Assembly: GCA_947259355.1 (NCBI GenBank)
Contig: CAMYMF010000014.1
Location: forward strand, 9,180 to 73,179
DNA: 64,000 nucleotides
DNA from: an uncultured Nitrospirota bacterium
GTDB taxonomy: Bacteria > CG2-30-53-67
Reading direction: 5' to 3'
Positions 1,696 to 55,852 of the stretch are shown here, piece after piece. A model generated the notes under the pieces. The model made no database searches and was not told the DNA's origin. It was given only the letters and a program-made list of their open reading frames with translations. The translations under genes were made by a program, and so were the position numbers. The first letter of the stretch is position 1, and each line of letters opens with the position of its first letter.

Positions 1696-1757
1696 TGTTT
1701 ATTCAGCGCAGGATCCTTGCGCTGACTGCATCACGATTCCCCAGGGCAATCCGGTTT

Positions 1758-2067
1758 AGCTCGGATATTGCATAAGTGCTTGTCGCGAGAGGCAGTAGAG
1801 TCGTCACAGGCACGGCGCAGAAGATTTTCTGGCTGAAGCCATATTGCAATATTTGAGTGGTCCTTTGCAAATATGGTGACGTATCGAGAGGGTTGTCGCG
1901 CGATCTCCTCAAGGCGCGCGACTGAGGCGTACCCCCTGAGGAGGTACGTTGCGGGGAGCGCAACGCAGAGGAGGGTGCGCTACGGCACTCGAATGCCACC
2001 GTATTTTCGAATAGGGCCACCAGATCAGAAAGTCTTCTGTAACACCGCATGTGGCAGGCGATACGGC
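1758..2067. repeat. composite copy of the AATATTGCA palindromic element (copy 1), carrying a ~170-nt nested insert
   Basis: Left end agctcggatattgcataagtg resembles the copy-2 terminus. The core 1814-1854 is identical to 29173-29213 at 40 of 41 positions. The right arm 2026-2067 matches the copy-2 right arm. 1855-2025 is extra, itself hairpin-rich sequence. Confidence 0.6.
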
Positions 2068-2580
2068 CTAGAGCTCGTAGAGCGTATCGTCCACCGATGG
2101 CGGCAGAAACCGCTTGCGCAAACCCGCCATGCCACCGGAGGTTTTGGGGGCAAAGGGATCTTCCCCTTCAAGGATATCGCCCATTTCCTGATCGATCTGT
2201 TCTGGATCCTCTCCGGCCTCCATCCGGCGGATGGCCTCTTCCATGCCGGAGCCAAGCCGCAGGCCGGTGGCATCGAAGAGCCTGCGCATCAATCGGGCTG
2301 CCTGGCGGGGATCCTCCTCGTTCATCCCTTCCGCTTCCCGGGCGAGGACCTGCATGGCCTGCTCCAGTTTACCTTCGTCCATGTCGGGCATGGCGTCTTC
2401 GTCTCCCTCTTCGCGCCCCCTGGAGATGGCAAAGAGAGAAACCTCACGTTCCAGGTCGGCCCGGCCGCATTTGGGGCAATTGGGGCGGCGCTCGGTATTG
2501 ACCGTGCGGGACAGAAAGTTGAAAATCCTGTGGCAGTCGCTGCAGTAGAACTCGTAGATTGGCACGGACTCCCCTCCCAT
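2068..2580 (-). CDS. FmdB-family zinc-ribbon protein with a long acidic C-terminal extension
   Basis: PIYEFYCSDCHRIF...RPNCPKCG gives the CxxC...CxxC zinc ribbon. I placed the start at the internal ATG (MGGESVPIYEF); the ORF stays open up to 2637. Confidence 0.6.
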   Translation of the reverse strand: MGGESVPIYEFYCSDCHRIFNFLSRTVNTERRPNCPKCGRADLEREVSLFAISRGREEGDEDAMPDMDEGKLEQAMQVLAREAEGMNEEDPRQAARLMRRLFDATGLRLGSGMEEAIRRMEAGEDPEQIDQEMGDILEGEDPFAPKTSGGMAGLRKRFLPPSVDDTLYEL

Positions 2581-11425: not shown

Positions 11426-12130
11426 ATGAAGAGAATGAGACAGTTGGTGATCTTGCTGATGGCGGCGGCTTTCGTCTTTTCCATGACCGGCTGCGCCCAG
11501 TGGCAGCAGTCAACGAAGACGACCAAGGGGGCCGTAACCGGTGCGGCGGTGGGGGCCGCCACGGGCTATCTGCTCAAACAGAACGATCCCTCCCGGCGGG
11601 CCAAGGCCACTGCCATTGGCGCGGCGGTGGGCGCGGCGGCGGGCGGTCTGGTTGGGCGCTACATGGAGAACCAGGCGCGAGAGCTTCAGGATATTCGGGA
11701 CGCGCAGGTCCGGCTCGAACAGGACAAAGTTTTTCTCACATTTGAGAGCGGGATCCTCTTCGACGTGAACTCGACGGCCATGAAGCCTGGGGCCATGCAG
11801 AACCTGAACAAGGTGGCCGACGTGATGACCCGCTATCCTGAGACGAACATACTCGTTGCAGGCCACACCGACAGCAGCGGTTCGGATCAGTACAACCAGA
11901 GGCTCTCAGAGGACCGAGCCCGCTCCGTGGCCAACTACCTGGGCTCCCATGGGGTCAGTTCATACCGGATCAGCACGGTGGGCTATGGTGAGTCGATGCC
12001 GATCGCGAGCAACAACACCCCGGAGGGGCGACAGGCCAACCGCCGAGTGGAAATCGAGATCAAAGCCAATCAGGCCCTTTACGAGCAGCAGCAACAGCAG
12101 ATGCCGGCCGGAGGGTATCCGGGGCGTTAG
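11426..12130 (+). CDS. OmpA-family lipoprotein (glycine-zipper plus OmpA_C peptidoglycan-binding domain)
   Basis: Lipobox FSMTGC. Gly/Ala-rich zipper. OmpA_C motif NILVAGHTDSSGSDQYNQRLSEDRARSV...NRRVEIEI. RBS AGGGAGGG. Confidence 0.9.
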   Translation: MKRMRQLVILLMAAAFVFSMTGCAQWQQSTKTTKGAVTGAAVGAATGYLLKQNDPSRRAKATAIGAAVGAAAGGLVGRYMENQARELQDIRDAQVRLEQDKVFLTFESGILFDVNSTAMKPGAMQNLNKVADVMTRYPETNILVAGHTDSSGSDQYNQRLSEDRARSVANYLGSHGVSSYRISTVGYGESMPIASNNTPEGRQANRRVEIEIKANQALYEQQQQQMPAGGYPGR

Positions 12131-12165
12131 GCGTCCGGGCGTCACAGCCTGAGTGATCCCATGAG

Positions 12166-12201
12166 CGGCCCTGAAGATACCGTCGGGGCCGTTCTTTTTT
12201 T
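12166..12201 (+). terminator. rho-independent terminator candidate
   Basis: Stem CGGCCC (12166-12171) pairs with GGGCCG (12186-12191), followed by TTCTTTTTTT. The loop is long (14 nt). Confidence 0.5.
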
Positions 12202-12580
12202 CCTTCCCCGTGAAGCGGAATCGTTTCCCCAATCCCCACTTGCGGCCGAAAACCAATGCAGAATCGACAATATGCCGATTCCTGAATCTAGCGTGAAACC
12301 CTGCTGCCGGCGGCAGACATTCTTGTCCGCACCCGGAATCAGGTCTGTATCTCTGGATCCGGAGGGCATTTTGAATCGCGCGTCTTCGCTGGCGTTCCTG
12401 TGCCCGTATCCCTGTTGTTGCTCGGCAGCCCCGTCGTGGGCGGGTCGGTTTTTCCAGGAAAGTGAACAAGAGAACCAAGCGTTGCAGACAAAGAATCCCC
12501 ATCGCCCCCCTGTGAATCCTCCAGACGGCTCTTTCCGGAAAGAGCGTCGTCTTTTGTATCACTTCACATACGATAATCGG

Positions 12581-27752: not shown

Positions 27753-28676
27753 ATGGGCCAGAACCGTTTTATCGTACTCGGATTGTTCGTGATCCTCGCG
27801 ATGGGGATGCTCTTTTATCTGGCCTTCAAGGTGGAGTCGTTCACCCTGCAGCGAGGCACAGAGGTGACGGTGCTTTTCGATGACGCCACGGGCCTCAAAA
27901 AGGGCGGCGACGTGAAAATCAAGGGGGTCAACTTCGGGCGGATCTCGAGGCTCGGCTATCGGGACGGCAAGGCCGTGGTCACGCTCCGGTTGCTGGGCGA
28001 CGTGCAGATTCCAAGCGACGCGGGGGCCCGCATTCGCCCCGAGAGCCTTCTGGGTGAGCACTTCCTGGAGCTCACTATCCCCGCGGGAAGCACGGCGCCC
28101 CCAATTGCCTCGGGACATGTCATCACCCATGCCACCAAGGCTGTGGATATCAATGAATTTGTCGATCGCATGGCTCGCTTCATAGAAGGATTCGAGGAGG
28201 ACGATTTCGCCCGAAACCTGAGCGGGGTCGTTCAGACACTCGCGGACAACCGTGAGCGAATCGATGCCATGATCCAAAACCTGGATCAACTGGCCGGCGA
28301 CGCGCGGACATTTCTCGAAACCAACCGGGAATCCCTGGAGAAGACCATCGACAATCTCGAGCGGATCACCGTCTCCTTCGGCAAGAACGCACCCCAAACG
28401 GCCCGCAGCCTCGATCGGGTCATGGCCCGCCTCGACAAACTCACCGCCGATCTGGAGCGGAAATCACCCAACCTGGCGGCGGATCTCGGCGAGACGATGA
28501 AGCATCTCGCGGAGGCGTCCGAGGCACTTCCGGCGACTCTCCAGGAGTTCGATTCGCTCTCGCGGAGGCTTCGCATAACCCTGAATCATGTGGACCGTTT
28601 CCTGATGCAGGAGGTGCCGGACATCAAGAGCATTCTGGAGCAGCGAGGCATCAAGGCGAAAGTCCGAATCTGGTGA
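27753..28676 (+). CDS. mlaD: MlaD/MCE-domain protein with a long C-terminal helical extension
   Basis: An N-terminal TM segment, then an MCE fold (VLFDDATGLKKGGDVKIKGVNFGRI). Confidence 0.85.
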   Translation: MGQNRFIVLGLFVILAMGMLFYLAFKVESFTLQRGTEVTVLFDDATGLKKGGDVKIKGVNFGRISRLGYRDGKAVVTLRLLGDVQIPSDAGARIRPESLLGEHFLELTIPAGSTAPPIASGHVITHATKAVDINEFVDRMARFIEGFEEDDFARNLSGVVQTLADNRERIDAMIQNLDQLAGDARTFLETNRESLEKTIDNLERITVSFGKNAPQTARSLDRVMARLDKLTADLERKSPNLAADLGETMKHLAEASEALPATLQEFDSLSRRLRITLNHVDRFLMQEVPDIKSILEQRGIKAKVRIW

Positions 28677-28725
28677 CCCCAGAGACGAAACGGCGCCTAA
28701 GACCGTGGCACCTGGAGAAAGGACC

Positions 28726-29106
28726 ATGCATCGACGGCTGTTCAACCTCCAAGAGATTCTCGAGAAACTCCCCTCCCAGGCCAGTCGGGCCGTTCTCTTT
28801 GCCGACGAGTACATCCTGGCAAGTCTCTGGAGCCTCGCTCCCGGTGAGCATATCTTTCCCCATCAGCACCCCGGATCGGATGACGTCTGGGTGGTGCTCA
28901 AAGGCGAGGGAGAATACTGGCTGGAGAAGGATGCAGCGCCTTGCAAGCTCAAAGAAGGCATGGTCGCGCTTGCGCCGGCGCGACACACCCATGGGGTGCG
29001 AAATACCGGCAAGCATCGGCTGGTCTTTGTCTCCATTTCGGCACCGCAGCCGCTCGACATCGAAGCCGTGGAAGGGCTCAGCCCAGAAAGCCTGAAGAAA
29101 GGCTAG
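28726..29106 (+). CDS. cupin-domain protein
   Basis: Cupin motifs GEHIFPHQHPGSDDVWVVLKGEG and HTHGVRNTG. The ATG at 28726 follows GGAGAAAGG; the ORF is open from a GTG at 28705. Confidence 0.7.
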   Translation: MHRRLFNLQEILEKLPSQASRAVLFADEYILASLWSLAPGEHIFPHQHPGSDDVWVVLKGEGEYWLEKDAAPCKLKEGMVALAPARHTHGVRNTGKHRLVFVSISAPQPLDIEAVEGLSPESLKKG

Positions 29107-29115
29107 AAACAGCAC

Positions 29116-29297
29116 TAGCCCGAATATTGCATGAGTGATCGTGATGAGGGGTCGAAGAAGGGCCGTAGGCAAGGCGCAGAAGATTTTCTGGCTGAAGACA
29201 TATTGCAATATTTCCAAGTCAGGAAATTCTTCTGCAACGCCGCATACGGCACCTTATCCGGCCTCGTAATAGACTTAATCATGCAATATTCGGGCTA
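29116..29297. mobile_element. MITE-like palindromic element (copy 2, archetype)
   Basis: Perfect 18-bp terminal inverted repeats: AGCCCGAATATTGCATGA (29117-29134) and TCATGCAATATTCGGGCT (29279-29296). Each is flanked by TA. The interior folds as one long imperfect hairpin centred on the 12-nt palindrome ATATTGCAATAT (29200-29211). No coding capacity. Confidence 0.6.
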
Positions 29298-29440
29298 AGG
29301 TGAGACGGGTGGCGGCGGTAACATCCCAAGGCCTGATTCAACTCAGAAATCGTTGGAAATAAGCTCATACTGCTCAAAATGGCGTAGCGGATTGAATCGG
29401 CAGGCGATATGTGGTAAGTTGATACGATTGGCCACGATAG

Positions 29441-29458
29441 TCATGAAATATTCGGGCT
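29441..29458. repeat. solo terminal-repeat copy of the element
   Basis: TCATGAAATATTCGGGCT matches the right TIR at 17 of 18 positions. It directly abuts the RBS of the ahbD-like gene. Confidence 0.5.
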
Positions 29459-29467
29459 GGAAGGAGC

Positions 29468-30547
29468 ATGATCATGCCCAAAGAGTTTGTACCCAAGTGG
29501 ATCGCCTGGGAGACGACGCAGCGCTGCAATCTTCGCTGTGTCCACTGCCGCTGCTCGTCCGATCTGACAGCCTCCGAGGGGGACTTCTCCACTGAGGAGG
29601 GCAAGCAGCTCCTCGACGATATCGTTGAATTCTGCAGCCCGGTGCTGGTTCTCTCCGGCGGCGAACCGCTGCTGAGGCCGGACATCTTTGAGCTGGCCCG
29701 TTACGGGACCGACAAGGGACTTCGGATGTGCATGGCCACCAACGGCACCCTCGTCGACGCCGCGGTCTGCGAGCAGATGAAGGCTTCGGGCATTCGGATC
29801 GTTTCGCTCAGTCTCGACGGTTCCACCGCAGAGATCCATGACAACTTCCGGGACTGTGCCGGTTCCTTTGAGGGGATCATCCGGGGCGCCCGAACGCTCA
29901 AGGAGCACGGGATCGAATTCATCATCAACTCTTCCTTCACGAAACGGAACCAGAACGACATCGCCAACGTGTTCAAACTGGCCAAGGAATTGGGGGCCAC
30001 CGCCTGGTACATGTTTATGATTGTCCCCACAGGCCGCGGCGAGGAGATCATGTCGGAGCTCATCTCCAAGGAAGATTACGAGGAGATTCTCGAGTGGCAC
30101 TACCGGCAGGAGAAAAATGAGAGCGAGCTGCTCATGCGGCCGACCTGTGCACCCCACTACTATCGCCTGGTGCCCCAGCTCGCCAAGAAGGAAGGGGTCA
30201 AATTCGAGCGCAGAAGCCTGAAGTTTTCCACTGGCGGCGGCAAGGGATGCATAGCCGCCCAGTCGATCTGCCTCATCGACTGCTTCGGGGACGTGAAACC
30301 GTGCAGCTATTTCCCGCGAGTGGCGGGCAACGTCAAGCGCGAGAAGTTCCGAGACATTTGGGAGAACGCACAGCTGTTCCAGGAACTGCGGGACTTCACG
30401 AAGTACAAAGGCAAGTGCGGCTCCTGCGAGTTCATCAATGTCTGCGGGGGATGCCGGGCGCGGGCCGACGCAATCCACGGGGACTACCTGGCTGAGGAGC
30501 CGTTCTGTAACTACATCCCGGTGCGGCTGCAGAAGGCGGAGAAGTAA
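29468..30547 (+). CDS. ahbD: radical SAM/SPASM protein of the AhbD (anaerobic heme synthase)/NirJ family
   Basis: CNLRCVHC cluster motif. TCAPHYYR, plus the C-terminal [19 protein letters not shown]...EEPFCNY SPASM region as I recall it for AhbD/NirJ. Adjacent to hemE-hemH. The name is by inference. Confidence 0.75.
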
Positions 30548-30560
30548 TTCTAAAACCGAC

Positions 30561-31089
30561 TCACCGCAGACGCAAAGGGCGCAAAGGAAAAGCCACTTGT
30601 CGCGAAAGGCAAAACCTAGAAACAATTTTACCGCAGCGGCCGCGGAGGACGCAGAGAAAGGCCTAGTATTTCTAAAGGCAAAACCCGTTCACCACACAAA
30701 GAGCACAAAGGAAAACCAGGAGTCTTTACTATTTTCTGTTTTCCATTTTCTATTTCCTGATGTGGTGGGCGCAAAGGGAAAAGACGTTCTTGAAAGAAAC
30801 AAAGACCTGATTCACCCTACACAACAGTTCGGAGATGAAGTTAGAAGCTATCAATTATAAAGAGAACAATCCAATAATGTCCTCTCCCCTGGGGGAGAGG
30901 ATAAAGGTGAGGGGACGGCCAATACTTGGGTGCTGGTTGCCGATTGCCAGCTGATATTAACAGGGACACAGAGTTGTTATACGAAACATGGGAGGTTCTC
31001 CTCTGCGGCCTCTGCGCACTCTGCGGTAAGATGGGTTATTGCTTTTGACAAAGAGATGTTTTTCTTCGCGCCCTTTGCGCCTGCGGTGA
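30561..31089. repeat. nested inverted-repeat block of purine-rich ~30-mers
   Basis: Forward copies at 30561-30592 (tcaccgcagacgcaaagggcgcaaaggaaaag), 30628-30662 and 30688-30716. Inverted copies at 30996-31029 and 31060-31089. The reverse complement of the last matches the first at 27 of 30 positions. A GC hairpin lies at 30881-30900. Confidence 0.7.
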
Positions 31090-31117
31090 AATAGAATTGT
31101 AAATATGAGGAGAGACG

Positions 31118-34780: not shown

Positions 34781-35128
34781 CGCTTTTTCACCTCCCGGGG
34801 GGCTCCTTCATCGGGGAACTATGGCAAGATATCTTGGGCTCCCCTACTTGGGTGTCATTATTCCAGCTTTTCAATCGACCACTTGACCCCAAGATACCTA
34901 TTTCCTGAAGCCATCGGAGACGGCATAGATAAAGTTGAGCGGGGCACGCGAAGCGTAATCCTTGACCCTTTGAACCCTCATGTCATTCAGTGCAGTGCTG
35001 CCTGTTCGAGCGAAAACAGTATGGCGCCAAAGTGAGGCGCAGTAAGAAGCGCCAGCTGCAAGGTTTGCTGCGCCCTGAGGAGTCAGCCCAGATCTTGCAC
35101 GAGGAAATCTATTACGAGACCGGGTAAG

Positions 35129-35250
35129 TTGCCGAATGCGGCGTTACAGAAGATTTTCCGACATCGGAATATTCCAATATGCCTCCTGCCGGAAAATCTC
35201 CTGTGCCTTGCCTTCAGCACTTCCTCGGCCTGCAATCTCCGTGCTCGGCG
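35129..35250. repeat. degenerate, inverted copy of the AATATTGCA palindromic element (copy 3)
   Basis: gccgaatgcggcgttacagaagattttccgacatcggaatattccaatatgcctcctgccggaaaatctcctgtgccttgcc aligns by eye with the reverse complement of the copy-2 centre. Confidence 0.5.
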
Positions 35251-55610: not shown

Positions 55611-55852
55611 AGTTTTTATCCGGAAACGGCCCTTTTCCCGATGAGCCGCGTTCTCCGCGGGCTTACTTCCTCGACGTACAATGAGTGCGCCTCGTCGTCA
55701 ACCCTTGTGCGGCCTTGCTCATCGAAAAAGTGGCTCATTTCCAAATTCAAAACCTATGCGTGCCCGTTTCAGTTTTCGGATGGACACGAGACCAATTCGC
55801 CTGTGTCCAAAGACACCATGCAGTGGGGCAGCCGCGGGAGATGCGGGTGGTG

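Follow-up and report, generated by a model that had tools for sequence, protein, structure and literature searches.

The window analysed here, a stretch of 64,000 nucleotides, corresponds to C14:9180-73179 of the source genome G000 (3.12 Mb, 94 contigs, 59% G+C, 89.7% complete). The interval of interest lies among genes for an MCE/MlaD protein, a small cupin, a radical-SAM protein and hemE. The top match of the radical-SAM protein is the heme b synthase AhbD, at 448 bits and under the 500-bit cut-off, so the label "ahbD-like" is a fair one for this gene. A long palindrome occupies the spacer between the cupin and ahbD-like genes, beginning, as the first-pass annotation of this DNA had stated, just past the cupin stop codon (29104-29106, with the element context starting at 29115/29116), and a solitary copy of its end lies farther along the same spacer. 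The features of the interval are the following.

29115-29118, plus strand: left copy of the target-site duplication, CTAG, assigned from the sequence, the flank statistics (YTAR) and the single 4-mer in empty sites
29119-29294, plus strand: element core, 176 bp, non-coding and near-palindromic
29119-29134, plus strand: left 16-nt inverted repeat (TIR), CCCGAATATTGCATGA, from the sequence
29200-29211, no strand: central palindrome ATATTGCAATAT, the hairpin tip, from sequence and fold
29279-29294, minus strand: right 16-nt TIR, exact complement of the left TIR, from the sequence
29295-29298, plus strand: right copy of the target-site duplication, CTAA (one mismatch to CTAG), from the sequence
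29392-29420, plus strand: ahbD promoter-like block, TTGAAT-N17-TGgTAAGTT, from a by-eye alignment of upstream regions
29441-29456, minus strand: solo right-end TIR, TCATGAAATATTCGGG, matching at 15/16 positions, with about 21 nt of end homology
29457-29460, plus strand: CTGG, a degenerate YTAR-like flank of the solo end, from the sequence

The sequence runs from aaaggcTAGaaacagcaCTAG into CCCGAATATTGCATGA at the left junction and from TCATGCAATATTCGGG into CTAAggtgag at the right. The first-pass annotation had described perfect 18-bp TIRs, and AGCCCGAATATTGCATGA at 29117-29134 is indeed mirrored by its exact reverse complement at 29279-29296; both ends are exact, but the outer two bases (AG...CT) belong to the target duplication, leaving a TIR of 16 nt. 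The third TIR copy was likewise recovered, matching at 17 of 18 positions at 29441-29458 on the minus strand and adjoining the ribosome-binding site of the ahbD-like gene. With up to three mismatches allowed, the 18-mer has four matches in the window against 0.02 expected from shuffles, none of 100 shuffles having produced four. One long hairpin spans the interval, centred as described on ATATTGCAATAT, a motif counted 18 times within copies of the family and nowhere else; over 182 bp the RNA fold reaches -94.9 kcal/mol (z = -10.9) and the DNA fold -47.6 kcal/mol (z = -8.7). Open reading frames in the 176-bp core extend to 55 aa only and are artefacts of the palindrome. The motif AATATTGCA is present at both ends and at the centre, where it lies on the minus strand; the proposal that it might be a protein-binding site finds no support, as 63 occurrences fall in family copies and the 11 outside them, against 8.2 expected, represent no enrichment.

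The palindrome is one member of a dispersed family. BLAST of the unit against the genome, the check proposed in the first-pass annotation, returned many full-length copies at 84-96% identity, plus fragments, and the window core belongs to the A-type subfamily, characterised by CCCGAATATT ends, with about nine other copies of the same genome 92-96% identical to it. An end-motif scan of G000, allowing up to three mismatches, yielded 123 matches and about 35 bounded or complete units, which measure 40 bp (2), 91-115 bp (3), 179-181 bp (about 20), 188-226 bp (5), 349-376 bp (4) and 443-445 bp (2); each position of the 16-nt end is conserved at 85-99% over the 123 matches. The copy at C55:12937-13164 includes a stretch of N, representing either a gap in the assembly or withheld sequence. 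The two 40-bp units, each composed of an end, 4 nt and an end, are identical and stand at separate loci with a CTAG duplication apiece, so the two ends alone may be sufficient for movement. Fourteen species genomes of the small phylum made up the lineage survey, including G001, from the same genus as G000, and G002, from the sister genus. The exact 16-mer CCCGRATATTGCATGA occurs 53 times in G000, 146 times in G001 and 69 times in G002, with no occurrence in the remaining 11 genomes, while a reversed-pattern control gave none in all 14; the end motif is also absent from 77 ahbD loci of other taxa. Within the window, the family is further represented by the following features.

1757-2069, plus strand: older long-form family copy with a degenerate left end (TTAG followed by CTCGGATATTGCATAA) and a truncated right arm without the right end
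1856-2021: nested family B module of this older composite, within the copy at 1757-2069
35085-35230, minus strand: degenerate partial copy, covering element positions 35-181 at 80% identity, with no recognisable ends

A tRNA gene (Rfam RF00005, 61 bits) is located at 1583-1654 on the minus strand, about 100 nt from the left end of the older composite.

The same arms recur in the 349-445-bp forms, which enclose a conserved central module of about 170 nt, or of 265 nt with a 96-nt sub-module, and some of them have an extra 29-nt block in the right arm. This module, family B, is nested just 3' of the central palindrome point in the long forms, and it is also found by itself between inverted ends of its own, GTGGYCCTGTTC...GAATAGGGCCAC, at C18:24324-24583, C30:~12078-12282 and C7:46414-46577. 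It folds at -140 kcal/mol (z = -8.8), has no Rfam match, and gives 13-69+ matches in 9/9 genomes of taxonomic family f1 and none in the sister family f2. Because the module stands alone with its own ends and is present throughout f1, family B is an older repeat that became inserted at the centre of the first one, the composite having then spread. Comparison of the copies suggests that the element centre is a point of recurrent insertion or replacement. Other repeats were encountered as well. The ahbD-like gene and hemE are separated by a 570-nt block (30548-31117), parts of which are found again, 72-93% identical, on at least 12 other contigs (C74, C73, C8, C77, C5 and others), identifying the block as a dispersed repeat rather than a locus-specific structure. 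A repeat of about 93 bp at window positions 55611-55703 (C14:64790-64882) has about 15 other loci in G000, and one of about 250 bp occurs at C59:14201-14447, C51:6555-6801 and C57:10349-10593, both having surfaced in the flanks of G001 copies. G000 is unusually rich in short intergenic repeats.

The genomic context of the copies was assessed with gene calls for G000 from a simple codon-usage caller (2,594 genes). No called gene is overlapped by 45 of the 53 copies or fragments, although the genome is 84% coding, and divergent spacers are somewhat under-used (5 of 49). Relative to co-directional neighbours, 14 copies have the same orientation and 19 the opposite one, revealing no bias. In 9 of the 53 copies the neighbouring gene ends on the TAG or TAA of the duplication, so that insertion there restores its stop codon. 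A promoter and terminator scan of the element and the solo end detected no consensus promoter and no T-tract terminator, and Rfam searches returned no match at E <= 1 for 28000-31000 and only the tRNA and noise for 1500-2400. A likeness to a sigma-54 promoter (cTAGCCCG-N4-TTGCA against TGGCACG-N4-TTGCA) did not survive inspection: where that promoter has its GG doublet the element has AG, or AA when the target is TTAA, and the solo end is oriented away from ahbD.

Flank statistics define both the target and the true end of the element. Outside the 18-mer, 79% of the 123 matches have T at position -1 and 94% have C or T at position -2, the bases being random from position -3 outwards; inside it, the second base is either G or A. 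In G000 the left and right flanking 4-mers agree as direct repeats far more often than under permutation (p = 0.0004 for position 1), and four elements have identical non-CTAG 4-mers where 0.86 would be expected (permutation p = 0.005); both CTAG and TTAA are infrequent in G000, with 0.35 and 0.62 occurrences per kb. The direct 4-bp duplication is replicated in G001 and G002, with TTAA/TTAA observed six times and CTAA/CTAA twice, and over the 73 pooled elements the direct-repeat match gives Fisher p = 2e-9 at position 1 and 8e-6 at position 4. Non-palindromic flanking 4-mers (CTAA/CTAA, TTAG/TTAG) are identical four times as direct repeats and never as inverted repeats, and empty sites hold the 4-mer once. 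From the direct-repeat flanks and the single 4-mer in empty sites it follows that the duplicated target is 4 bp of the form YTAR (CTAG, TTAA, CTAA or TTAG) and that the inverted repeat is the 16-nt CCCGRATATTGCATGA. The TA that the first-pass annotation had read as either a target duplication or a 19th TIR base pair is thus the middle of this tetranucleotide, whose outer positions 1 and 4 are duplicated too. Duplications are imperfect in 43 of the 73 elements, position 4 being mismatched most often (21/73). A 6-bp NCTAGN duplication, as in IS481-like elements, was ruled out by the randomness of position -3, and a 3-bp duplication by the co-variation of position 4 between both sides.

Filled and empty states of orthologous sites demonstrate that the element family moves. 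When the joined flanks of 17 G000 copies were searched in G001 and G002, 5 of the 17 aligned straight over the junction; at the cleanest of these sites, C1:73068, the filled sequence gtcacT[AGCCCGG...CCGGGCT]Atgag in G000 corresponds to the empty gtcacTTtgag in G001. In the reverse test, in which the flanks of 38 copies from G001 and G002 were compared by BLAST with G000, 14 had a junction-spanning match, and base-resolution empty sites in G000 for G001 insertions include CTAT (L045), CTAC (L047), TTAA (L055) and CTGA (L056), among others. The filled/empty differences that the first-pass annotation had named as a check were therefore found in both directions. The closest relative of a copy comes mostly from the same genome (16 of 19 in G000, 15 of 17 in G002), indicating that amplification went on after the lineages split, while one site with a 445-bp copy in G000 and only the right end in G001 indicates that some insertions are older than the G000/G001 split. 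The evidence for an empty state of the window copy is coarse and comes from G002 only, the locus being missing from the G001 assembly: in G002 the MlaD-cupin-ahbD order is kept, and a cupin-ahbD spacer of about 43 bp is present without the element.

The solo end appears to have a separate history. The 140 nt on its left side have no second copy in the genome, and its CTGG flank is directly followed by an AAGGAG ribosome-binding site (29461-29466); the ATG at 29474 (MPKEF..., 7 nt past AAGGAG) is a likelier start for the ahbD-like gene than the ATG at 29468, homologues beginning with MPKEF or MTKEF. Upstream of ahbD, a block of the form CGGATTGAAT-N17-TG(T/G)GATAA is common to several genera, including relatives without the element (loci L077-L082). 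This conserved block, which fails the consensus scan, is probably the native ahbD promoter, to judge from the aligned upstream regions, and the presence of the promoter-like block at about 29389-29420 places the solo end in the ahbD leader. The window copy would accordingly belong to the 3' untranslated part of the Mla/cupin transcript, ahead of the native ahbD promoter, and its presence there is probably neutral. In genus g5, which lacks the family, the ahbD leader contains a native GAATATTC followed by TTAG at the place where the window has the solo-end core GAAATATTC. This resemblance is probably coincidental, the solo end being probably the truncated remnant of a second, older insertion at a YTAR site in the ahbD leader.

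Taken with the multi-copy family, the filled/empty sites bear out the first-pass reading of the hairpin as a MITE, and the sequence at 29119-29294 is very likely a non-autonomous DNA transposon (MITE) with 16-nt TIRs that was inserted at a YTAR site and moved in trans. In the proposed mechanism, insertion at the YTAR tetranucleotide would proceed through a 4-bp staggered cut, leaving the CTAG and CTAA flanks, and the movement in trans would depend on an IS5-type (or IS701-type) DDE transposase. IS701 has a 4-bp YTAR target, for which no statement was found in the literature. The 4-bp YTAR duplication is the signature of this group, and it is on the duplication that we infer an IS5-like enzyme. 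IS5 is documented to produce YTAR duplications as a conserved motif (PMC10359306). The partner transposase may be missing from the incomplete MAGs or may have been lost, and complementary arms would persist in propagating copies through a role of the fold in movement or through mutual correction between the arms. The solo end at 29441-29456 would be what is left of an earlier insertion into the ahbD leader.

Searches for the enzyme covered the three carrier MAGs, which are 84-93% complete and fragmented, and metagenomic sequences. The families PF01609 and PF13586 (IS4/IS5-type) and PF13546 (IS701-type, DDE_5) are absent from G000-G002, while control genomes score, and PF13358 (DDE_3, IS630-type) is absent from G000. 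A metagenome scan with a 28-nt end pattern gave 40 loci, all MITE-sized or truncated, with ordinary genes inside unpaired ends. The DDE transposase with the same TIRs, for which the first-pass annotation had suggested a search, was thus found neither in the three MAGs nor among the 40 metagenome loci. The distant end pairs at C36:5460-6577 and C34:20213-22136 enclose no transposase. MAGs often lose multi-copy IS elements, so this absence is weak evidence. At G001:C80:5400-9300 (L083), a GT2 glycosyltransferase and a WbaP-like sugar transferase lie between inverted family ends spaced by 3.3 kb; the two ends are probably unrelated rather than those of a gene-carrying composite. Some of the metagenome copies (L183, L206) have another short central insert, a GGGTGCCAGGCAG...CTGGCACCC hairpin, which replaces family B.

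The complementarity of the hairpin arms is maintained. Across an alignment of 55 full-length copies from the three genomes, 94.6% of stem cells are canonically paired, compared with 33-45% when partners are shifted by 1-3 columns. Between the consensus sequences of the two main subfamilies there are 17 differing columns, and 8 of these make up four fully compensated pairs, (6,182), (57,139), (58,138) and (73,122), against an estimated chance expectation of about 0.6 partner pairs; the covarying stem pairs occur in many haplotype combinations. Most variants confined to one sampled copy disrupt pairing (60 single broken versus 29 wobble), in a sample that represents only part of the family. Arm complementarity is therefore preserved in whatever copies propagate, which may be explained by a fold needed for movement, by one protein matching both arms, or by mutual correction of the arms. 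Compensated changes are found deep in the stem, 55-75 nt from the ends, where they are unexpected for a plain DDE element recognised at its tips only. It is conceivable, though unlikely, that the family is a hairpin-dependent mobile unit whose folded single strand is the substrate of an unrecognised enzyme leaving a 4-bp YTAR duplication, a reading that would explain both the compensated interior changes and the missing usual DDE families in the three carrier genomes.

A MITE of the IS630/Tc1-mariner type, duplicating TA and counting the outermost G/A...C/T pair as part of the inverted repeat, shares several features with the family. TA is central in nearly all flanks, CTAG is the preferred IS630 target, and the lengths of the empty sites fit a TA duplication equally. 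The flanks nevertheless make this very unlikely: left-flank position -2 and the penultimate base of the right end vary together as a direct repeat (p = 2e-9), which the TA model does not predict, and CTAA/CTAA and TTAG/TTAG are direct repeats. At L056, moreover, the empty CTGA became CTGA/CTCA when filled, with no TA, and G000 lacks a DDE_3 gene.

It is also highly improbable that the family consists of REPIN-like hairpins moved as single-stranded DNA by a Y1 (HUH, RAYT/IS200-type) transposase. Such a mode of movement would suit an element that is a hairpin throughout, with compensated arms, and it could draw on the Y1_Tnp genes of the carrier genomes, one fragment of which lies 280 nt from a family copy at C60; nor did the searches turn up a DDE partner. 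Y1 transposition gives no target duplication, however, and a 4-bp duplication is present here; Y1_Tnp genes, furthermore, occur in all 14 phylum genomes, the 11 that lack the family among them, and have no family ends on their flanks. These IS200/RAYT-type genes are about 330 aa long. The copy at G000 C16:84539-85569 is split in two frames (153 + 200 aa), and the one near the family copy, which measures 115 bp, is a 90-aa fragment at a contig end (C60:17844-18113).

A structural repeat selected by the host and not currently mobile, such as a REP/ERIC-like RNA hairpin, a terminator or a host-regulator operator, might be suspected from the very stable fold, the position directly past a stop codon and the coincidence of the solo-end core with the native g5 sequence in the ahbD leader, but it is extremely unlikely given the filled/empty polymorphism, the target duplications and the lack of an orientation bias, T-tract terminator, promoter or Rfam match in the analyses above.

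As a non-autonomous transposon, the window palindrome is a well-behaved example of a known element type and represents no new kind of system; its family is unusual in its compensated hairpin arms, its nested composites and a partner that the searches failed to reveal. Mobile elements are seldom described in uncultured MAG lineages of this kind, and the family adds to a small uncultured phylum a new MITE family with its ends, target, size classes, subfamilies and insertion polymorphisms, the filled and empty sites being usable as strain markers. It accounts for several odd intergenic palindromes in G000 and its relatives, averting their mis-reading as riboswitches, terminators or operators, and its compensated arms and nested composites provide a small natural dataset on the evolution of hairpin mobile elements.

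Among known systems, the IS5 family (IS5 group) and its derived MITEs resemble the window family in their 4-bp YTAR duplication (PMC10359306), short TIRs and multi-copy non-coding derivatives. The window family differs from them in that the whole element is a hairpin with compensated arms and that its carrier MAGs are without PF01609 and PF13586. Correia/NEMIS in Neisseria and RUP in Streptococcus pneumoniae are TA-duplicating MITEs of 100-200 bp with inverted ends, present in dozens to hundreds of intergenic copies, often by gene ends, and with size variants that arise via internal deletions. Size, inverted ends, intergenic copies, gene-end sites and size variants are all shared with the window family, which in contrast duplicates YTAR rather than TA and has no detected promoter or terminator. 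For REPINs, the work of Bertels and Rainey from 2011 is said to have established the long hairpin as the replicating unit, with arm complementarity preserved across the population; REPINs leave their target unduplicated and are accompanied by a cognate RAYT with REPs on its flanks. A hairpin unit with preserved arm complementarity is common to both, whereas the window family has a duplication and no Y1 gene that is lineage-specific or flanked by its ends. Chunjie, a MITE of Geobacter uraniireducens, was reportedly described by Chen et al. in 2008 as recently active and as inserting between operon genes without disruption. By this description it is alike as a bacterial intergenic MITE, and its sequence and host are unrelated to those of the window family.
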